A stretch of DNA of 64,000 bases from an uncultured Bacteroidales bacterium. GTDB lineage: Bacteria; Bacteroidota; Bacteroidia; Bacteroidales; JAGOPY01. The notes beneath the pieces are model-generated. The model was given only the letters and a program-made list of their open reading frames with translations, was not told where the DNA came from and did not search any database. Each line of letters begins with the position of its first letter. Within the stretch, counting starts at the first letter, position 1. This document shows, in pieces, positions 4,412-35,680 of this stretch. The stretch spans positions 38,752-102,751 of the forward strand of contig CAYUQP010000009.1 of NCBI GenBank assembly GCA_964447005.1, in the 5' to 3' direction. Position numbers and translations under genes: made by a program.

Positions 4412-4498
4412 TAGATTCGAATTCCAACGACTAAAGCCGTTGGTTCCTGGTTAGTTGCAAAATATCAACCGACGGCTTTAGTCGTCGGCGATGCGAAA
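4412..4498. repeat. MITE-like repeat, copy 2. Minimal form: the two TIR hairpins separated by about 25 bp.
   Basis: tgtagattcgaattCCAACGACTAAAGCCGTTGGTTCC ... AACCGACGGCTTTAGTCGTCGGcgatgcgaaa. Same arms as 1835-2110. Confidence 0.6.
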
Positions 4499-25614: not shown

Positions 25615-26619
25615 TTGCCATTGATTAGAAATTATTCTCACTTGGTTAGAATTGGGCCCATCGAAGCCGGGGAATTCCCGTTGTTGCTTGCTCCCATGGA
25701 GGATGTGAGCGATCCGCCGTTCCGTTATGTCTGCAAGATGTTTGGAGCGGATATCATGTATACTGAATTCATTTCTTCAGAAGGACTGATCCGGGAAGCT
25801 GCTAAGAGCGTTAAAAAGCTTGAATTCACCGAATTCGAGCGGCCGATCGGGATACAGATCTTCGGCCATGATATTGAATCGATGGTGCAGGCCGCCAAAT
25901 TCGCCGAAGAAGCCAATCCCGACATCATCGACATCAATTACGGCTGCCCGGTGAGAAAAGTGGCTGACCGGGGCGCAGGTTCGGGGATCCTGAACAACAT
26001 CCCGAAAATGGTAAAGATGACCGAGGCTGTGGTGAATGCGGTGAAAAAGCCGGTCACGGTGAAAACCCGGCTGGGTTATGACAACCACATGAAAGACATC
26101 GTGGAGATCGCCGAGCGCTTGCAGGATGTCGGCATCCAGGCCATCACGATCCATGGGCGCACCCGGGTGACCCGTTCCAGCGAACCGGCCGACTGGACCC
26201 TCATCGGCGAGGTGAAAAAGAATCCCAGGATGCACATCCCGGTCTTTGGCAACGGGGATGTTTTCTCCCCCGAAGCGGCCAGGCATTTCAAAGAAACTTA
26301 CCAGGTCGACGGACTGATGATCGCCCGCGGAAGTTACGGCAATCCATGGATCTTCAGGGATATTAAACAATTCCTGGAAACCGGAATAATAGCAGCTCCT
26401 CCCGATATCCATGAAAGGGTGCGCATTTGCCGCATCCACCTTGAGAAATCGGTGGAGTGGAAAGGCGAGCGGGTTGCCATCAATGAAATCCGCAAGCATT
26501 ATTCCGATTACTTCAAAGGATATCCTGATTTCAAGCACTTCAAGGTTGCCCTCATGGAAGCCGGAACGGCAGATATCATCAATGAATTACTGGATCAGAT
26601 CCTTCTGGCTTATTCGTAA
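25615..26619 (+). CDS. dusB: tRNA-dihydrouridine synthase
   Basis: LLLAPMEDVSDPPFR, NYGCPVRKV (catalytic Cys) and TIHGRTR motifs of the Dus family. Confidence 0.85.
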   Translation: MPLIRNYSHLVRIGPIEAGEFPLLLAPMEDVSDPPFRYVCKMFGADIMYTEFISSEGLIREAAKSVKKLEFTEFERPIGIQIFGHDIESMVQAAKFAEEANPDIIDINYGCPVRKVADRGAGSGILNNIPKMVKMTEAVVNAVKKPVTVKTRLGYDNHMKDIVEIAERLQDVGIQAITIHGRTRVTRSSEPADWTLIGEVKKNPRMHIPVFGNGDVFSPEAARHFKETYQVDGLMIARGSYGNPWIFRDIKQFLETGIIAAPPDIHERVRICRIHLEKSVEWKGERVAINEIRKHYSDYFKGYPDFKHFKVALMEAGTADIINELLDQILLAYS

Positions 26620-29103: not shown

Positions 29104-30687
29104 TTAGCCCGTCGCATAGAATTTCATCTCAAGTAACCTGACCTTTTTTCCCTTCAGGTCATCATGATAACACCGGAGCAACATGGGTTTGATCAGGATT
29201 CCAGCTCCGGCTGATAAAATAATCTCCGACGGGGAACTGTTTTCAGTTATGATCTTTTGCTCACCTGTTTCAAGCATCTTTTTATGGGAACCTGGCATTA
29301 AAAGGAGCGGAAAAGATAAAATATGTGCGTGTTCCAGGAAAAAGACCAGGCTGAACGCGATGTCATCGTATGATTGCCTCCAGGTCAGCCACTCATCGGG
29401 CAGGTTCTGGTAAAGTATGACTTCCTTCAAAATAAGATCCTCCGGTCCCTGGAATCTGATCTTGTCAATATTACGGTTCATCAGGACCATTTTAAGTTTA
29501 GGATTAGCCTCAGGATCAATGGTTTTTACAAACCTGCCCTGGACTGTGAACTCCCCGGCATGATGCAGGATCGAGGCAACCTGTCGTATGGCCCTTTTCG
29601 TAAAAAGATTGTTGATCACAGCAAAACCTTTGTTTTCGAGCTTTTTCCGGATGATATCAATGCCTTTTTCGTTAATGGAGGTATTATAAAGATCGATTGC
29701 TTCACTCAGACGGCCGACAATGCTGCGCTTCAATCCTTCCGGTGACAGCACCTGCATCCCCTCTCCCATTCCGAGGATCTCTTTTTCCAGCTCAAAATTG
29801 TGCTGAACCGTTAGTTCAATGGTAATACCATGGTCATCTTTGCCGATCACCTTCTGGGAGCTATGCAACGGCTTGGTAACGATATAATTGGCATGCCTGT
29901 GTGAAACATAAAGCACTATCTTTTCCGGCTTCTGGTTCGCCTCCACCGTCACCCCGATCACATCCTTGAAATAGCTTTCCGGGTTGAAGTTTTCCACCGC
30001 GATATAAGGCAACTCCGAGGGATGGACGGCCATGATCCGGTCAAGGGCCAGCGTGAGGACCGGCTCATTCTTCTTTTTAACCCCGAGGATATACCACCTG
30101 TTGCGAAATTCTTTCAGCAAATACGGATGAAAAATGAAGGTATTGGCCTGCCTTGCCCTGAACGACTGGTATGTCAGCTTAATGGCCCGTTGCTGGATGA
30201 TCGACTGGTAAAGCACGTCCAGATAATCCAGCCCCTTCAGGTTTTCGTTTTTCTCGAAATCGATGGCCGGCTTCTGCTTCTTCTTTTTAGAATAGACATG
30301 GTCTTCGAGCTTCTGTATCATCCCGTCCAGGTCCCTGAAGTGCGAAAAGCCCCTGAACTGCTTCATGAATTCCACCGCTTCCGACATTTTCTCCAGGTCC
30401 TGGTCGGTCAGCGGGATGTTGGTAATGCTGTAGCCTTTCTCTTCGTAGGTATAATACTTGTTGTCATACACGACGATGGGTGCGTTGTAGCCCAGCTTGT
30501 CGCTGCGCATCAACTGGATATCCAGTTGAACGGTCCTCCGGCTGATACCTTTTGTGATGCCTTCGTATTCATACAACGCTTCCGAGCATGCCTCTATCAG
30601 GTCTTCCAGGGTCCATTGACGATAGCGGTTTTGGAGGCATTGGTCAATGGTTTTATAACGGATTAATGCATTACGGTTGACTGGCAT
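29104..30687 (-). CDS. HTH-WYL-WCX transcriptional regulator with an additional C-terminal domain of about 190 aa and unknown function
   Basis: N-terminal HTH (ISRRTVQLDIQLM). WYL motif IKLTYQSFRARQANTFIFHPYLLKEFRNRWYILGV. WCX-like segment to about aa 340. Residues 340-527 have no recognisable family. Divergent from the ncRNA/SPFH/rtcB cluster. Confidence 0.7.
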   Translation of the reverse strand: MPVNRNALIRYKTIDQCLQNRYRQWTLEDLIEACSEALYEYEGITKGISRRTVQLDIQLMRSDKLGYNAPIVVYDNKYYTYEEKGYSITNIPLTDQDLEKMSEAVEFMKQFRGFSHFRDLDGMIQKLEDHVYSKKKKQKPAIDFEKNENLKGLDYLDVLYQSIIQQRAIKLTYQSFRARQANTFIFHPYLLKEFRNRWYILGVKKKNEPVLTLALDRIMAVHPSELPYIAVENFNPESYFKDVIGVTVEANQKPEKIVLYVSHRHANYIVTKPLHSSQKVIGKDDHGITIELTVQHNFELEKEILGMGEGMQVLSPEGLKRSIVGRLSEAIDLYNTSINEKGIDIIRKKLENKGFAVINNLFTKRAIRQVASILHHAGEFTVQGRFVKTIDPEANPKLKMVLMNRNIDKIRFQGPEDLILKEVILYQNLPDEWLTWRQSYDDIAFSLVFFLEHAHILSFPLLLMPGSHKKMLETGEQKIITENSSPSEIILSAGAGILIKPMLLRCYHDDLKGKKVRLLEMKFYATG

Positions 30688-30798
30688 AAGAATATTTTTA
30701 ATAAAAATAAAAAATATTTTCAGTTACGCAAAAAGCTTGCGCAGCGGTTTATAAATATTTGCAATGTTCTTTGATTTAATTGCTTGTTCCGATGAACA

Positions 30799-30884
30799 GG
30801 TGGTGAAAATAAGGCAGAATGGACCCCGATATTTTCAGGATGAAAATATCGGGGTGGCGAAAGGGTTCGAGTCCCTGCACCACC
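30799..30884 (+). ncRNA. Non-canonical tRNA-like RNA module A. It has a 7-bp acceptor-like terminal helix, a 14-bp perfect hairpin at the anticodon-arm position and a T-arm, but no D-arm.
   Basis: GGTGGTG (30799-30805) pairs with CACCACC (30878-30884). CCCCGATATTTTCA-gga-TGAAAATATCGGGG spans 30824-30854. The T-arm AGGGTTCGAGTCCCT spans 30862-30876. The T-loop orientation is on the + strand. Confidence 0.4.
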
Positions 30885-30989
30885 GCGATAGGATGAGGAT
30901 GAGCAAAGCCCGGGTGCAAGTTTCCCTATGGCTTCACAGTGTTGCGTCCCTTAGGCCGTAATATGCTGCTTTCCTCGTCGCATTTTATC

Positions 30990-31100
30990 ACTAAACAACT
31001 TGTAGGTCGGGGGTTCGAATCCCCCTCCGTGTCGAAAGCGGATAGCCCAGCGGTAGAGCAGCAAGCAAACATGCAGGTTCGAATCCTGCTCCCTGGTTCA
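30990..31100 (+). ncRNA. Permuted tRNA-like module B/C (Y-RNA-like, YrlA-type tRNA mimic candidate)
   Basis: The order is CTTGT-AGGTC (variable loop), GGGGGTTCGAATCCCCC (T-arm), TCCG-tgtcgaaag-CGGA (closed acceptor-like hairpin), TA (U8A9), GCCCAGCGGTAGAGC (D-arm), A, GCAAG. The two flanks CTTGT/GCAAG can pair as an anticodon-position stem. It is followed by a second T-arm-like hairpin GCAGGTTCGAATCCTGC. No canonical cloverleaf can be formed. Confidence 0.4.
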
Positions 31101-31184
31101 GGGAATGCGTAATGGTTGACGCGATGAATTGTAGGTTCATTGTTTATTGCAAGATGGTCACTTGTAAAAATGACCGCAGGAACA

Positions 31185-31417
31185 GCCGGAAGCCAGCCGG
31201 TTTCCCGGGTTTACCCGGAAAACAGTTTCAAACCGGCCGGGGCGAGGGGATCTCGCCGGTGTGCCCAGGGCTGCTTTCATCTGCATGAATTTCCGATCCG
31301 GTGCCGCTTCGGCTTCATCGCTGAGGAAAGGAGATGCAGAGAAACCAGCCTTGAAATCCCGGCTAAACCGGGCCTCCGCCGGAATGGGATGGCCGGCTTC
31401 CGCTGTTCTATTTTAAA
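31185..31417 (+). ncRNA. GC-rich structured RNA element (unknown class) closed by a long-range helix, immediately upstream of the SPFH gene
   Basis: CAGCCGGAAGCC (31185-31196) pairs with GGCTTCCGCTG (31407-31417). The interior holds hairpins CCCGGGtttaCCCGG, GCCGcttcGGC (UUCG tetraloop) and CCCGGctaaaCCGGG. GC content is far above the AT-rich flanks. The 93-aa Arg-rich ORF here is implausible. Confidence 0.3.
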
Positions 31418-32551
31418 ATGAAATCTATTAACCAATTAATACATATTGAGATGAGAAAAGTAATAATTAACGCGGGAAACGTAGGCCTGGTCTTCAGAAA
31501 AGAAGCCTACAAAAGGGTACTGACCGAAGGTTCGTACTGGATCGCACTGAATGAAAGGGTGATCGTATTCAACATGGCGAAGCCTTTCGTGCCGCCTGTC
31601 GATTTGAACATCCTGTTAAGGGATAAAGTGCTGGCTGCCTTGCTGACGATTATCAAAGTGGCCGACAATGAAATCGCCCTGAAGTTTGAGGACGGGATCT
31701 TCAAAGGGGTCCTGGTGCCTGGAAAATACGCCTTCTGGAAAGGATTGACCGACTACACGTTCACGATGGTCGACCTGGGAGTGAAAGAGATCCCGGACGA
31801 CCTGGACAAGAACCTGTTGGTGAAACCGGAAATAGCCACCTACCTGAGGGCCTACACGGTCGAATCGTTCGAAAAAGGGATCATGTTCGTGGACGGGAAA
31901 TTCGAAAAGATGCTGGACCCGGGGATTTATTTCTTCTGGAAAAACGCAATCCCGGTCTCGGTTGTAAAAGCCGACCTGAGGCAGTTGCAACTGGAAGTTT
32001 CGGGACAGGAGATCCTGACCAGGGACAAAGCAGCCCTGAGGGTAAACTTCTACGCTCAGTACAGGATCAGCGACGCGGTCAAGGCTGTGGTCGAATGCAA
32101 GGAATACGACAAACAGTTGTATATCCTGATGCAGCTGGCGTTGAGGGAATACATCGGGATGTACGCGCTGGATGAATTATTGGAAAATAAGGAGTCGGTC
32201 GCAAAAAGCATCCTGAAAAACACCGGGGAGCCGGCCGCAAGGCTGGGTGTGGAGATCGTGGCCTGCGGGATCAGGGATATCATTCTGCCCGGAGAGGTGA
32301 AGGATATCATGAACCAGGTGCTGATCGCCGAGAAAAAGGCCCAGGCTAACATCATCACCAGGAGAGAAGAAACCGCTTCGACAAGGAGCTTGCTGAATAC
32401 TGCCAAACTGATGGAAGACAACGCCATGTTGTTTAAACTGAAAGAAATGGAATATGTTGAAAAGATCGCAGATAAGATCAACACCATTTCGTTATCGGGC
32501 GGTAACCAGATCATCGACCAGTTGAGGGATATCTTCTCGCCGGGCAAATAG
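31418..32551 (+). CDS. SPFH/band-7 (stomatin/prohibitin-like, slipin-type) domain protein
   Basis: GVEIVACGIRDIILPGEVKDIMNQVLIAEKKAQANIITRREETAS is a typical SPFH C-terminal core. 377 aa with an N-terminal extension and no clear TM. Confidence 0.7.
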   Translation: MKSINQLIHIEMRKVIINAGNVGLVFRKEAYKRVLTEGSYWIALNERVIVFNMAKPFVPPVDLNILLRDKVLAALLTIIKVADNEIALKFEDGIFKGVLVPGKYAFWKGLTDYTFTMVDLGVKEIPDDLDKNLLVKPEIATYLRAYTVESFEKGIMFVDGKFEKMLDPGIYFFWKNAIPVSVVKADLRQLQLEVSGQEILTRDKAALRVNFYAQYRISDAVKAVVECKEYDKQLYILMQLALREYIGMYALDELLENKESVAKSILKNTGEPAARLGVEIVACGIRDIILPGEVKDIMNQVLIAEKKAQANIITRREETASTRSLLNTAKLMEDNAMLFKLKEMEYVEKIADKINTISLSGGNQIIDQLRDIFSPGK

Positions 32552-32556
32552 TTCAG

Positions 32557-32690
32557 AACCTCACCCCCTTTACCCCCTGCCCCCTATTCCCCCTCTCCAG
32601 ATTGGAGAGGGGGAATAGGGGGTGAGGTTGAAACGTGGAGAGGGGGTTAGGGGGTGAGGTTGAAAAACCGACGGCTTTAGTCGTCGGTTG
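32557..32690. repeat. MITE-like repeat copy 3. It has the internal cctcaccccctttaccccctgccc/gggggtgaggttgaaa module plus the right TIR, and no left TIR.
   Basis: cctcaccccctttaccccctgcccctattccccctctcc-agattgg-agagggggaatagggggtgagg palindrome. Direct repeat gggggtgaggttgaaa x2. Then AACCGACGGCTTTAGTCGTCGG. Confidence 0.6.
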
Positions 32691-32736
32691 TAATTAAAAT
32701 GCAAATCTTTAGGCTTATATATTTTATCTTTAAACA

Positions 32737-33900
32737 ATGAAACAAGTAATCACCACCGAAAATAAGCCCATCAAATTATGGCTGGATGAAATCGAAGCAG
32801 AGGCTATGGCCCAGGCCCGAAACCTGGCCAATCTGCCGTTTGCGCACAAGCACATCGCCATCATGCCCGACAGCCATGTGGGCTACGGCATGCCGATCGG
32901 CGCTGTGCTTGCCACTAAGGGAGCGGTGGTCCCCAACGCGGTGGGCGTGGATATCGGTTGCGGCATGTGCGCCATGAGGACCGACATGAAGCGCATCACC
33001 AAACTGCAGTTGAAGAAGATCATGGGAATAGCCAGGAAGCTGATCCCGGTAGGCTTCGACCATCACAGGGAAAGGCAGGATGAAGCGCTGATGCCGCAGC
33101 AGAACCGTGAATCCATGAAGATCGTGACCCGGGAATACATTTCCGCGTTAAAGCAGATCGGTACCCTGGGGGGAGGTAACCATTTTATCGAGATCCAGAA
33201 AGGATCCGACGGGTTCACCTGGATCATGATCCATTCAGGCAGCAGGAACATCGGTCTGAAAGTAGCCGATTATTATAACAGGATGGCCCAGAAACTGAAC
33301 GAGCGGTACTTTTCCAGCGTGCCAAAAGAAGTCCAGCTCGCTTTTTTCCCGATTGAGAGCGAAGAAGCCCACCAATACATGGCTGAAATGCAGTACTGCA
33401 TCGATTTTGCGCTGGCCAACCGGAAGCTCATGATGGACCGGATGATCGAATCGGTCACAGAAGTGAAGGGCAGTTTCGGCCGGGACGAGATCATCAACAA
33501 GTCGCACAATTTCGCGGCCTGGGAGCATCATTTCAACACCAATGTCCTGGTGCACAGGAAAGGGGCTACCCGTGCTTATGAAGGCGAACTGGGCATGATC
33601 CCCGGTTCACAGGGTACCAGGTCCTACATCGTAAAAGGGCTGGGCAATGAAGAAAGCTTCAAATCCTGTTCGCACGGCGCCGGCCGGAAGATGGGCCGGA
33701 GCAAGGCCACAAAAGTCCTGGATCTTGAAAAAGAGATCGCATTCCTTGAAAAGCAGGGCATCCTGCATGCCATCAGGCATAAGGGAGACCTGGAAGAAGC
33801 CGCCGGCGCTTACAAGGATATCAATGTCGTAATGGAAAACCAGAAAGACCTTGTCGACATTGTGGTGGAACTCCGTCCGCTGGCTGTGATAAAGGGGTGA
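32737..33900 (+). CDS. rtcB: RtcB-family RNA 3'-phosphate/2',3'-cyclic phosphate ligase
   Basis: VGVDIGCGM, HSGSRNIG, GGGNHFIE and SHGAGRKMGR are the metal-binding and nucleotidyl-His motifs of RtcB. 387 aa. Confidence 0.9.
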   Translation: MKQVITTENKPIKLWLDEIEAEAMAQARNLANLPFAHKHIAIMPDSHVGYGMPIGAVLATKGAVVPNAVGVDIGCGMCAMRTDMKRITKLQLKKIMGIARKLIPVGFDHHRERQDEALMPQQNRESMKIVTREYISALKQIGTLGGGNHFIEIQKGSDGFTWIMIHSGSRNIGLKVADYYNRMAQKLNERYFSSVPKEVQLAFFPIESEEAHQYMAEMQYCIDFALANRKLMMDRMIESVTEVKGSFGRDEIINKSHNFAAWEHHFNTNVLVHRKGATRAYEGELGMIPGSQGTRSYIVKGLGNEESFKSCSHGAGRKMGRSKATKVLDLEKEIAFLEKQGILHAIRHKGDLEEAAGAYKDINVVMENQKDLVDIVVELRPLAVIKG

Positions 33901-35632: not shown

Positions 35633-35680
35633 AGCGAATTCCAAATTCCCTTAACCGATGGCTTTAGTCGTCGGACTAAA
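35633..35680. repeat. MITE-like repeat copy 4 (right TIR only, variant AACCGATGGCTTTAGTCGTCGG), preceded by aattcca-type units
   Basis: Sequence identity to the right arms at 2078, 4469 and 32667. Confidence 0.5.

Follow-up and report, generated by a model that had tools for sequence, protein, structure and literature searches.

A divergent gene cluster (29104-33900) lies in the window, a 64,000-nucleotide stretch of DNA from an uncultured Bacteroidales bacterium. Its minus strand carries the gene for a 527-aa WYL-family transcription regulator (29104-30687; Pfam WYL E 4.6e-13, WCX E 2e-9), and its plus strand an SPFH/Band-7 gene (first listed as 31418-32551; Pfam Band_7 E 1e-33) followed by the gene for the RNA ligase RtcB (32737-33900; Pfam RtcB E 1.8e-107; 387 aa), so that the Pfam matches place all three genes at the coordinates of the original prediction. 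The true SPFH start is almost certainly Met12 at position 31451, because the homologues are 366 aa long and the upstream ATG is GAG in the closest other species. The non-coding gap between the divergent genes is real, structured and conserved as had been claimed, but with the revised start it spans 763 nt (30688-31450) rather than about 730 bp (30688-31417). The claimed absence of rtcA is borne out, with no rtcA, rsr or rtcR ORF between or beside the WYL, SPFH and rtcB genes; the flanking genes encode a 756-aa protein without Pfam match, Dus, a Por_Secre_tail protein and PntAB. Judged by its sequence, the locus is a conserved RNA-repair cassette of WYL regulator, tRNA-like structured RNA, soluble SPFH protein and RtcB.

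The SPFH protein, a "slipin" of 366 aa (31451-32551, plus strand; Pfam Band_7), has a unique N-terminal region of 130 aa, followed by a stomatin-like SPFH domain and a coiled coil. It has more than 7,900 homologues at E <= 1e-10, and stomatin, QmcA and HflK from the PDB align to residues 131-344. The highest 19-residue hydropathy is only 1.51, so no transmembrane helix is predicted in SPFH and its earlier designation as a membrane scaffold is unsupported. RtcB belongs to a short subfamily (387 aa), and its motifs GVDIGCG, GGGNHF, HSGSR, SHN and SHGAGR align with the metal- and GMP-binding motifs of P. horikoshii RtcB, indicating that the ligase is catalytically intact.

The original prediction had placed tRNA-like ncRNAs in the gap, and covariance-model matches and fold z-scores confirm this. 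Neither ARAGORN nor Rfam at its gathering threshold calls a true tRNA in the gap, which makes "tRNA-like" the right term. The promoter is followed by about 680 nt of conserved structured RNA comprising tRNA-like unit 1, domain X, two modules, a GUA arm, hairpin H3 and a 3' domain, and in a comparison with one relative the intergenic DNA shows about 85% identity, against only 78% for the SPFH protein. Unit 1 (30799-30887, plus strand) has a 7-bp acceptor stem (GGTGGTG/CACCACC) and a T-arm (GGGTTCGAGTCCC), lacks a D-arm and has a 15-bp hairpin where a tRNA would have its anticodon arm; its fold energy is -38.9 kcal/mol (z = -5.3). It is kept in the related loci L081-83, and other loci have in this slot a low-scoring tRNA-Tyr(GUA)-like gene that is probably the b7a-tRNA discussed below. 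Domain X (30905-30995, plus strand) forms two hairpins with the motifs GTTTC..TATGGC..CA.AGT and ATATGCTGCT. Nearly every locus has this domain ahead of module 1. It shows compensatory changes in 11 of 15 pairs of an RNAalifold consensus from 47 sequences and matches no Rfam family.

The two modules have the permuted topology of the YrlA tRNA-like domain, that is, T-arm, closed acceptor hairpin and D-arm. In module 1 (30998-31066, plus strand; 68.4 bits, E 3.7e-19 with our own covariance model R1), a closing stem (CTTGT/GCAAG) encloses the T-arm GGGGGTTCGAATCCCCC, a closed acceptor-like hairpin (TCCG..CGGA) and the D-arm GCCCAGCGGTAGAGC, whose stem has one C-A mismatch in the window. In the seed alignment 96% of cells pair and 15 of 19 pairs show compensatory changes; the covariation of 0.65 compares with 0.22 for shuffles (0/500 reach it) and 0.09-0.16 for slid controls. 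The Rfam YrlA model matches module 1 only partially and below threshold (31.5 bits, model positions 23-86). Module 1 is helix-closed without an anticodon loop, and such a loop is absent from all of the best-conserved modules. Module 2 (31069-31140, plus strand) scores 25.2 bits with R1 (E 1e-4, 31069-31127) and 25.2 bits against Rfam tRNA, under the gathering score of 29; it comprises a T-arm (31073-31089), a closed acceptor hairpin (31090-31104) and a D-arm (31107-31122). An anticodon-like arm follows at 31124-31140 (ATGAA-TTGTAGG-TTCAT) with U33 and, at the anticodon position, GUA, and all four hairpins are present in the MFE fold. L081 keeps module 2 and the arm, with the loop CTGTAGA. About 30 other loci have, after their last module, a canonical 5-bp/7-nt anticodon arm whose anticodon varies (raw counts: Asn 7, Lys 6, His 3, others).

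Hairpin H3 (31156-31175, plus strand; GGTCA-CTTGTAAAAA-TGACC) has a conserved A-rich loop whose motif, CTTNT(1-3)AAAAA, is shared by about 30 loci at some 300 nt ahead of the SPFH gene; the hairpin is kept in L081 with a compensatory change. The "structured element" of the original prediction corresponds to the 3' domain (31179-31408, plus strand), 230 nt closed by the long-range helix GGAACAGCCGGAAGCC / GGCCGGCTTCCGCTGTTC, with a fold energy of -121 kcal/mol (z = -5.2) and compensatory changes in 26 of 81 pairs of a three-species alignment. Its closing helix ends in UAUUUU shortly before the SPFH start codon. The conserved core of domain X, modules and H3 stops about 300 nt before SPFH and the remainder is clade-specific, the 3' domain being confined to the window, L081-83 and L084-85. 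This domain could be a cis-acting leader instead of part of a trans-acting RNA.

We surveyed 80 related Bacteroidota SPFH loci, of which 77 are informative for the RNA module and 64 have both flanks. The invariant pair is SPFH with the same-strand RNA module upstream, detected by covariance model in 74 of the 77 loci across several Bacteroidota orders. RtcB lies downstream of SPFH in 54/80 loci (72% of the 64), and WYL orthologues of 47-66% identity lie divergently upstream in 34/80 (47% of the 64). The neighbourhood thus shows WYL to be a conserved, specific partner, but the tightest pair is SPFH and RNA rather than WYL and rtcB. Among the 64 loci, 25 have WYL and RtcB, 5 WYL only, 21 RtcB only and 13 neither; the WYL-RtcB association given SPFH is not significant (Fisher p = 0.09), and the 13 loci with neither suggest that an SPFH-RNA particle may work without RtcB. 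Two non-orthologous RtcB types share the slot downstream of SPFH, one comprising orthologues of 64-69% identity in Bacteroidales and Marinilabiliales loci and the other, elsewhere, being 32-37% identical. Further repair neighbours in related loci are RlaP nucleotidyltransferases, PrfH-like proteins, phosphatases, AAA ATPases and RNaseH-like PF04308 proteins. Loci L004, L006 and L009 consist of an operator, a tRNA-Tyr-like gene and SPFH, and nothing more. Same-strand arrays of 5 to 18 tRNAs adjoin SPFH in 14 loci; by raw counts, not relative to genomic tRNA gene content, they are dominated by Tyr, Asp, Lys, Phe, Gln, Asn, His and Glu, with Gly, Thr, Ala and Val nearly absent.

The predicted WYL operator is a conserved 19-bp palindrome (30725-30743; TACGCA-AAAAGCT-TGCGCA), present as a single copy in the whole window. 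Its consensus, TRCGCA-N7-TGCGYA, occurs in 41/80 loci overall and in 33/34 WYL loci, where it lies about 35 nt from the WYL ATG and 14 nt upstream of a Bacteroidetes -7 box. In eight loci, extra copies stand downstream of SPFH, ahead of rtcB or other repair genes. On the plus strand, the segment 30754-30774 is predicted to hold the promoter core and transcription start on the basis of the known Bacteroidetes consensus TAnnTTTG: the -7 box AATATTTG, with TTTG at 30758-30761, follows the operator by 14 nt in most aligned loci, and the motif GTTCTTTGA (30766-30774) is found at the equivalent place in 20 loci. The near-invariant operator in WYL loci, its copies before rtcB and the divergent orthologues together make it a well-founded prediction that the WYL protein controls the RNA-SPFH-RtcB unit. 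Since the palindrome overlaps the -33 region, repression rather than activation is suggested, although WYL factors can be activators, as in the case of PafBC and DriD, which counts against assuming repression.

The regulator comprises a conserved N-terminal region, presumably an HTH that Pfam does not detect, followed by WYL (aa 155-222), WCX (aa 254-330) and a C-terminal extension; PADLOC assigns it generic WYL models only. Structural modelling identifies the extension (aa 336-527; 29107-29682, minus strand) as a pseudo-dioxygenase domain of the PhyH-type 2-oxoglutarate/Fe(II) fold: its AF2 model (pLDDT 92.5) has FtmOx1, human PhyH, GriE and EctD as top Foldseek PDB matches (probability 1.0, E about 1e-8). 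The HxD...H metal triad is lost, the window having WRQS where relatives have WHQD. The versions in L078, L038 and L023, which match the window extension by tblastn at E 1e-12 to 1e-17, keep WHQD...H...R and are recognised by Pfam PhyH at 1e-11 to 1e-12. A rare domain, it has 22 representatives in 1.84 billion proteins. PafBC, DriD, BrxR and CapW share with the regulator the architecture of N-terminal DNA-binding region, WYL and WCX, as well as a gene divergent from its target and a palindromic site in the shared promoter, but the window protein adds the PhyH-fold domain and is predicted to act on an RNA-repair operon, where the others control DNA-damage or phage-defence genes.

As cited in bioRxiv 10.1101/312249, Burroughs and Aravind (2016, NAR) proposed that Band-7, b7a-tRNA and RtcB act as scaffold, cofactor RNA and ligase, and the same group proposed WYL factors as cyclic-phosphate RNA sensors and RNA-repair regulators. 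As far as the citing papers show, the window system is of this predicted Band-7/tRNA-like RNA/RtcB repair type: SPFH/Band-7 adjoins RtcB, a tRNA-like ncRNA lies upstream, and related loci carry the same accessory RlaP nucleotidyltransferases, PrfH, phosphatases and ATPases. The pairing of SPFH with RtcB, earlier put forward as departing from the textbook rtcBA arrangement, does so but is not new. The b7a-tRNA as cited "strongly resembles an authentic tRNA", whereas unit 1 of the window is degenerate, and the main conserved element here is instead the tandem of YrlA-type modules in a longer RNA with domain X. In the literature covered here, we found no mention of the WYL operator or the PhyH-like extension. 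The system is thus real and largely anticipated, the undescribed details being the composite RNA, the operator and the WYL-PhyH fusion.

Other systems offer partial parallels. YrlA (Rfam RF02553), from the Rsr/Ro60-Y RNA-RtcB operon of Salmonella and other bacteria, is likewise encoded beside rtcB, has T-arm, loop-closed acceptor stem and D-arm closed by an anticodon-stem-like helix, and presumably serves in the same way, as the scaffold or cofactor of a protein that forms rings or cages. However, the window RNA lacks the Ro-binding helix (only positions 23-86 of 114 match, at 31.5 bits against a gathering score of 69) and has its modules in tandem within a predicted transcript of 400-680 nt; rsr is absent, the RNA's protein partner is SPFH, and the regulator is WYL, not RtcR. 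As in the rtcBA operons of E. coli and Salmonella, RtcB is under a dedicated divergent regulator with a sensor domain for damaged-tRNA fragments (shown for RtcR, predicted here), but the locus has neither CARF/sigma-54 activator nor rtcA, and its promoter is of the Bacteroidetes sigma-A type. The Pseudomonas rtc locus contains an SPFH gene. An experimental functional parallel comes from Anabaena PCC 7120, where translational stress induces a regulon in which one repressor, TrcR, governs rtcB, a slipin/SPFH gene, the gene for an AAA ATPase and an array of extra tRNAs (PMC10272220, PMC8421152). Unlike the WYL protein, TrcR is of the ribbon-helix-helix type, and its operator differs; its regulon is scattered over chromosome and plasmid whereas the window genes are clustered, and its tRNAs are authentic genes in a 26-gene array whereas the window units are only tRNA-like.

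The best explanation of the locus, to which we give a probability of roughly 0.6, would be a stress-inducible Band-7/SPFH, tRNA-like RNA and RtcB repair operon. A WYL dimer would bind the palindrome and repress both its own gene and the RNA-SPFH-rtcB transcript until RNA breakage products, bound by the WYL domain, release it. Sensing of damaged RNA by this domain is predicted, the basis being the published predictions, and the inducing fragments would be tRNA pieces with 2',3'-cyclic-phosphate ends that arise from anticodon nucleases, toxins or translational stress. A small molecule may act as a second input through the degenerate PhyH-like domain. The induced RNA would be processed, with the acceptor-bearing unit 1 as a possible excision product of RNase P and RNase Z, two enzymes to which the closed-acceptor modules would be immune. 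Together with an SPFH oligomer, the mimics of the tRNA elbow may form a ribonucleoprotein particle that brings broken tRNAs to RtcB or presents them to it; the ligase would reseal 3'-phosphate or cyclic-phosphate ends to 5'-OH ends.

Alternatively, the tRNA-like units and anticodon arms might act as decoys or spare parts that bait or sponge anticodon nucleases and other tRNA-targeting toxins, with SPFH sequestering or protecting them and RtcB an optional add-on instead of the particle's client. This is possible though unlikely. It is consistent with the conservation of the U33/GUA arm in L081, the canonical arms with varied anticodons on other last modules, the real tRNA arrays in the same slot, the 28% of loci in which the SPFH-RNA pair occurs without RtcB, and the sponge role already proposed for the Anabaena array. 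However, the proteins most often encoded alongside are still RtcB and other RNA-end-healing enzymes, the best-conserved modules offer no anticodon loop as bait, and the anticodon skew of the arrays is one of raw counts, not set against genomic tRNA gene content.

It is rather improbable that the whole 680 nt is a 5' UTR controlling SPFH-rtcB, for example as a sensor of uncharged or broken tRNA or through processing or attenuation, with no trans-acting RNA involved: the conserved core ends well before SPFH, with clade-specific sequence intervening, the structural analogue YrlA is a stable, protein-binding trans-acting RNA, and unit 1 and the tRNA-Tyr-like genes elsewhere have free acceptor ends suiting excision. 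Such a leader would nevertheless fit the constant position of the RNA directly upstream of SPFH on the same strand, the UAUUUU end of the long closing helix near the start codon, and the lack of a plus-strand intrinsic terminator between RNA and SPFH. A further reading, in which non-functional remnants of a tRNA array lie beside SPFH by chance and WYL regulates only itself, could appeal to the failure of ARAGORN and Rfam to call a true tRNA, the C-A mismatch in the module 1 D-stem and the real arrays of relatives at the same position. It is contradicted by the covariation of the permuted modules, whose topology persists in 74/77 loci of several orders; the gap DNA moreover keeps about 85% identity between species whose SPFH proteins share 78%, and operator copies precede rtcB in eight loci, leaving this reading hardly tenable.

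Within the repair-operon reading, co-transcription of rtcB is an assumption; the palindrome search of the window finds no operator copy in the SPFH-rtcB spacer and strong hairpins lie there. These hairpins (32557-32689, plus strand) fall outside the conserved system, and the spacer is not conserved in L081-82. The inverted-repeat listing resolves them into a long C-rich/G-rich hairpin (32557-32666) and a REP-like hairpin (32666-32689), the latter occurring in four copies in the window.

The three proteins named in the original prediction are borne out by ORF mapping and Pfam. On the minus strand lies a regulator of 527 residues (29104-30687) with the WYL plus WCX architecture of WYL-domain regulators (WYL at residues 155-222, 4.6e-13; WCX at residues 254-330, 2e-9), and on the plus strand a Band_7/SPFH gene is followed directly, on the same strand, by rtcB (32737-33900). 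The SPFH protein, of 366 residues, most likely starts at 31451 and not at 31418, because its homologues are 366 residues long and the upstream ATG is GAG in the nearest other species. The non-coding gap that had been placed at 30688-31417 is thus real but spans 30688-31450 (763 nt). Judged by alignment with P. horikoshii RtcB (PH1602), in which all metal-binding (Asp/Cys/His) motifs and the motif of the GMP-accepting His are matched, the ligase is intact. The reported lack of rtcA was confirmed, and ORF map and Pfam likewise place no rtcR (the CARF/sigma-54 activator) in the locus, in contrast to the RtcR-rtcBA operon. Residues 131-344 of the SPFH protein, comprising the SPFH domain and coiled coil, align with stomatin, QmcA and HflK, and its 130 N-terminal residues are unique. 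It shares domain and coiled coil with the membrane scaffolds (stomatin, HflK/C, flotillin) but not their N-terminal anchor; the Kyte-Doolittle mean over 19 residues peaks at 1.51, in a segment containing charged residues. The protein is predicted to be soluble, which leaves the membrane scaffold first proposed unsupported, and it belongs to a very large family of more than 7,900 sequence clusters.

Scanning an alignment of SPFH homologues against one genome per species yielded 80 loci (L001-L080) from Bacteroidota and Bacteroidota-like metagenome-assembled genomes, and exact protein look-up added three closer metagenomic relatives (L081-L085). L081-83, with an SPFH protein 78% identical to that of the window, keep the whole synteny: a WYL gene of 536-568 residues, a 767-nt gap, SPFH, RtcB and, further downstream, PntB. 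Over its whole length their gap matches that of the window at about 85% identity, more than the adjoining SPFH protein does, which argues that the gap is under selection. Among the 80 loci, a WYL orthologue lies divergently upstream of SPFH in 34 (47-66% identity, tblastn with the N-terminal 335 residues of the regulator) and RtcB downstream on the same strand in 54 (tblastn). The RtcB slot holds either the short type of the window (64-69% identical, Bacteroidales and Marinilabiliales) or a second type only 32-37% identical to it, a pattern that, on sequence comparison, is one of displacement inside a fixed arrangement. Of the loci, 64 had sufficient flanking sequence on either side; sorted by content, 25 of these had WYL and RtcB, 5 WYL only, 21 RtcB only and 13 neither. 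The proposed WYL-SPFH-rtcB neighbourhood therefore holds in that SPFH is often partnered by WYL and often by RtcB, but the tie between WYL and RtcB themselves is not significant (Fisher p = 0.09).

Among the other recurrent neighbours, a TPR protein is found in 20 loci, an AAA ATPase in 9 and an RNaseH-like PF04308 protein in 8; two RlaP 'RNA repair pathway' nucleotidyltransferases recur in 7 and 6 loci, and a PrfH-like RF-1 domain protein and a tyrosine-phosphatase-fold protein in 4 each. The PrfH-like proteins, encoded within a few kb of SPFH-RtcB (L001:9469-10125, L029:877-1527, L037:566-1264, L047:9690-10319), hint at a link with the RtcB-PrfH ribosome-rescue module. L084/L085 (JGI 3300009868; SPFH 76% identical) keep the WYL gene, the full structured RNA including its 3' domain, and SPFH; no RtcB adjoins, and a UvrA-like gene comes next on the opposite strand.

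The gap features three GGTTCGA(A/G)TCC T-loop motifs. The tRNA-like non-coding RNAs expected there are present as tRNA-like modules, but not as true tRNA genes: neither ARAGORN with default settings nor Rfam at its gathering threshold reports one, and at relaxed threshold the best tRNA (RF00005) score in the gap is 25.2 bits (31040-31092), below the 29-bit threshold. Each module runs in the order helix 5' strand, five unpaired nucleotides, T-arm, local hairpin, TA, D-arm and helix 3' strand, an arrangement that recurs 350-650 nt upstream of SPFH across the 80 loci. In an alignment of 30 sequences, 96% of the cells in the four helices are standard pairs, 15 of the 19 pairs carry compensatory double changes, and the covariation score of 0.65 compares with 0.22 for shuffles (0/500 reach the observed value) and 0.09-0.16 when pairing partners are slid by 1-3 columns. 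The T-stem had served to select the aligned sequences; the hairpin and closing helix played no part in that choice, and each of their ten pairs covaries. From this alignment we built a covariance model, R1, which finds the module upstream of SPFH and on the SPFH strand in 74 of the 77 loci having upstream sequence. In the window, R1 detects module 1 at 30998-31066 on the plus strand (68.4 bits, E 4e-19) and a second, weaker copy, module 2, at 31069-31127 on the same strand, with its D-arm at 31107-31122.

The predicted module topology (T-arm, closed acceptor hairpin, D-arm, closing helix) is that of the tRNA-like domain of YrlA. YrlA (RF02553) matches the window at 31001-31064 with 31.5 bits at relaxed threshold, over model positions 23-86 only; positions 1-22 and 87-114 are unmatched, so that the Ro-binding helix is without counterpart, and the score falls far short of the 69-bit full-length gathering score, as it does in L016 (35 bits). 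The YrlA partner rsr (Ro60/TROVE) is not beside the window RNA: no such ORF occurs within 25.6-38.6 kb of the window or among the conserved neighbour clusters of the related loci. The modules could also be taken for ordinary tRNAs devoid of an anticodon arm, and the Rfam tRNA model does give 29-39 bits in relatives, yet we disfavour such a reading because the acceptor-like stems covary as local hairpins that are different, and internally complementary, in successive modules. A further reading takes the modules as permuted tRNA precursors that mature through circularisation by RtcB, as in Cyanidioschyzon. We judge this unlikely because the closed acceptor stems, with 4-6 bp under loops of 3-9 nt (module 2 of the window has 6 bp and 3 nt), are too short for RNase P and RNase Z to generate a 7-bp acceptor.

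The two modules form the centre of a composite plus-strand RNA. It opens with a small hairpin and unit 1 (30799-30887), in which a 7-bp acceptor stem is combined with a 15-bp hairpin and a T-arm and the D-arm is missing (fold z = -5.3), followed by domain X (30905-30995), two hairpins with invariant stretches in which 11 of 15 pairs covary over 47 sequences. Module 2 leads into an anticodon-like stem-loop of 5 bp and 7 nt (31124-31140), whose loop UUGUAGG places GUA at the anticodon position, and then come hairpin H3 (31156-31175, loop CTTGTAAAAA) and a 230-nt 3' domain (31179-31408) closed by a 16-bp long-range helix (z = -5.2), which corresponds to the structured element originally predicted. 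The portion from domain X to H3 is widely shared, and unit 1 and the 3' domain are specific to the window's clade; the 3' domain was accordingly dismissed as a widely conserved element, its motifs being confined to that clade. This conserved RNA on the SPFH strand is absent from Rfam, where domain X and the 3' domain find no family even at E <= 10.

In many other loci the position of unit 1 is taken by a tRNA-Tyr(GUA)-like gene that scores low and whose D-arm is odd; it is probably the published band 7-associated tRNA. Members of this family have an unusual 5-bp D-stem (CCAAC/GTTGG) and a long variable arm, score 33-46 bits with the Rfam tRNA model, and lie between the putative WYL operator and domain X (L003:4259-4344, L005:4121-4205, L016:4250-4335, L027:4219-4302 and about 15 others); in L004, L006 and L009 the gene is the sole RNA between operator and SPFH. 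A canonical anticodon arm continues the last module in about 30 loci, its anticodon varying from locus to locus (Asn, Lys, His, Leu, Met, Tyr and others). Moreover, in 14 loci from Chitinophagaceae, Flavobacteriaceae and Sphingobacteriales, SPFH is adjoined by 5 to 18 authentic same-strand tRNA genes. Such arrays, seen for example in L039, L053, L055, L063-L065, L067, L069, L070, L074, L077, L079 and L080, lie about 1-4 kb upstream of SPFH, and in L070 downstream too. Over the 80 loci we counted 207 same-strand tRNAs, with Tyr(GTA) 22, Asp 15, Lys(TTT) 15, Phe 14, Gln 13, Asn 13, His 12 and Glu 11, and with Gly, Thr, Ala and Val nearly missing; these are raw counts, uncorrected for the genomic tRNA background.

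The strongest available evidence for the WYL control of the operon that had been proposed is a conserved palindrome in the right place, the predicted operator, found by aligning the 130 nt upstream of WYL start codons. Its consensus is CTRCGCA-N7-TGCGYAG, about 35 nt from the WYL ATG, and 14 nt past it on the plus strand stands a TTTG that fits the -7 element of Bacteroidetes promoters (TAnnTTTG). The window has a single copy in its 64 kb, TACGCAAAAAGCTTGCGCA (30725-30743), with the TTTG at 30758-30761 on the plus strand and a conserved motif, GTTCTTTGA (30766-30774), about where transcription is expected to start. The strict pattern occurs in 41 of the 80 loci, namely in 33 of the 34 that bear the WYL gene and in 8 without a WYL gene within 5 kb. 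Since the palindrome would cover approximately -42 to -24 of the plus-strand promoter as well as the upstream region of the regulator's own promoter, its position suggests that the WYL protein is a repressor and an autoregulator, the sign of regulation being deduced from this placement. The N-terminus of the regulator is the part most conserved among orthologues; Pfam detects no helix-turn-helix there. An additional copy of the palindrome follows SPFH, ahead of rtcB or other downstream genes, in 8 loci (L010:6194, L012:3430, L024:6315, L038:6176, L047:6163, L054:6335, L078:6154, L023:7727). Several loci, e.g. L033, L050, L057 and L066, carry two tandem upstream copies about 100 nt apart, and L004, L006 and L009 are reduced to palindrome, tRNA-Tyr-like gene and SPFH, with nothing more.

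Beyond WCX, residues 336-527 of the regulator have no Pfam match, PhyH included. The extension is rare: at a cut-off of E <= 1e-3, a search of 1.84 billion proteins returned 22 representatives, almost every one the tail of a WYL protein, superseding an earlier word-based homology search with the C-terminal domain that had returned one protein only. An AlphaFold (AF2) model from a 20-sequence alignment (pLDDT 92.5) has as its best structural neighbours FtmOx1, human phytanoyl-CoA hydroxylase, GriE and the ectoine hydroxylase EctD (Foldseek probability 1.0, E ~1e-8), so that the modelled extension has the double-stranded beta-helix fold of the PhyH family. The equivalent regions of the L078, L038 and L023 proteins, to which the window's tail is significantly linked by tblastn, match Pfam PhyH at 1e-11 to 1e-12 and display WHQD...H...R. 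The window shares the fold of PhyH dioxygenases but has lost their HxD...H iron triad, with WRQS in place of WHQD and LLRCY in place of LLHAS of these three relatives, and the best reading of its extension is that of a pseudo-enzyme, which perhaps serves to bind a ligand. The catalytic-signature domains, on the minus strand of their loci (L078:812-1474, L038:2550-3218, L023:1589-2260), keep an insert of about 30 residues that the window's version has lost; active 2-oxoglutarate dioxygenases may therefore exist among the WYL regulators of this operon. Some form of the extension is present in about one third of the WYL orthologues, and the others end after WCX, as does the 353-residue protein of L084. 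The WYL-PhyH fusion offers a handle on what WYL regulators sense.

According to the literature citing it (bioRxiv 10.1101/312249), Burroughs and Aravind (2016) described RtcB beside a Band-7 protein and a predicted 'band 7-associated tRNA'; YrlA is said there to adjoin Band-7 occasionally, and none of these predictions had been validated at that time. For WYL transcription factors as sensors of cyclic-phosphate RNA and regulators of RNA repair, the same group cites the 2016 paper. Pseudomonas has an SPFH gene inside its rtc locus, and the Anabaena repressor TrcR governs rtcB together with a slipin gene, an AAA ATPase and an array of 26 tRNA genes, every one of which translational stress induces (PMC10272220, PMC8421152). 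The window combines both hallmarks of the Band-7/SPFH system, a same-strand SPFH-RtcB pair and an adjoining conserved tRNA-like RNA, and is a member of this predicted, experimentally untested class. The regulatory idea of the original prediction agrees with the published ones, as conveyed by the citing literature, and is hence not new as a concept. Outside that citing literature lie the permuted module, near-universal and tandem in Bacteroidota, domain X and the long composite RNA, the defined operator, the PhyH-like domain on the WYL regulator and the soluble SPFH protein, some of which the 2016 paper itself may hold. The locus is real, conserved and biologically coherent, its concept anticipated and its details new.

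To our knowledge RtcB is universal, its bacterial substrates and helpers are unclear, and the Band-7 branch of RNA repair is to date a computational prediction only. The locus presents a compact, testable version of that branch, with a defined operator, an RNA fold supported by covariation, a soluble SPFH protein, in Bacteroidota almost always paired with this RNA, and a ligase. In the mechanism we envisage, the WYL protein would bind the palindrome and repress the operon until broken RNA releases it. The RNA would be processed, unit 1 with its free acceptor ends being excisable by RNase P and RNase Z and the closed modules not; the tRNA-elbow mimics and domain X would bind an SPFH oligomer, and the resulting SPFH-RNA particle would help RtcB to reseal broken tRNAs. 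In a more far-reaching reading, to which we assign a probability of roughly 15%, the soluble SPFH protein would form a cage or ring carrying a multi-headed tRNA-mimic RNA, made up of at least two tRNA elbows, anticodon arms that can be exchanged, and domain X; this would be a bacterial analogue of Ro-Y RNA and vault particles. The RNA would serve as bait and alarm: anticodon nucleases would cut the anticodon-like loops, and the cyclic-phosphate fragments would be the ligand that releases the WYL repressor. Broken cellular tRNAs would be handed over to RtcB, while in relatives the same promoter would drive arrays of spare tRNAs, and the PhyH-like domain, by sequence catalytically intact in some relatives, could add a second metabolic or nucleoside input.

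The main rival to the mechanism envisaged sees in the RNA, and in the tRNA arrays that relatives carry, baits or spare parts directed against toxins that attack tRNA, with RtcB optional; by raw counts, the SPFH-linked tRNA set resembles known anticodon-nuclease target sets. Alternatively, the RNA, or at least its 3' domain, may act in cis as a leader. If the SPFH-RNA particle exists, it would carry the Ro-Y RNA/vault theme, in which a small structured RNA accompanies a cage protein, over to a new protein fold, and it would explain the co-regulation of tRNA array, slipin and RtcB in distant phyla such as the cyanobacteria. A known anti-phage defence system was considered and set aside, PADLOC yielding generic WYL matches only.

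The genes flanking the locus encode a 756-residue protein that matches no Pfam family, the dihydrouridine synthase Dus, a T9SS-tailed protein and PntAB; none is known as an RNA-repair gene. The tRNA-modifying Dus (25615-26619, plus strand, Pfam E 3e-83), 2.5 kb upstream of the WYL gene with the 756-residue protein in between, is probably a coincidental neighbour, because it is not seen beside the locus in L081-83. The SPFH-rtcB spacer, which holds no operator copy in the window, folds into a long C/G-rich hairpin of about 110 nt (32557-32666), imperfect, with CCCCCT / AGGGGG repeats and a perfect 20-bp core at 32580-32622, and a second hairpin, AACCGACGGCTTTAGTCGTCGG. The latter, of 24 nt, has four plus-strand intergenic copies (2078-2101, 4467-4490, 32666-32689 and 35653-35676) and represents a REP-like repeat or, alternatively, a terminator hairpin used at several sites. 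A conserved regulatory element in the spacer was rejected because the nearest species has unrelated sequence there and because the spacer includes the repeat present four times in the window. At the same position the nearest relative, L081, has an unrelated palindromic sequence (CACAAAGG...CTTTGTG), and it seems that a hairpin is wanted in the spacer whatever its particular sequence.
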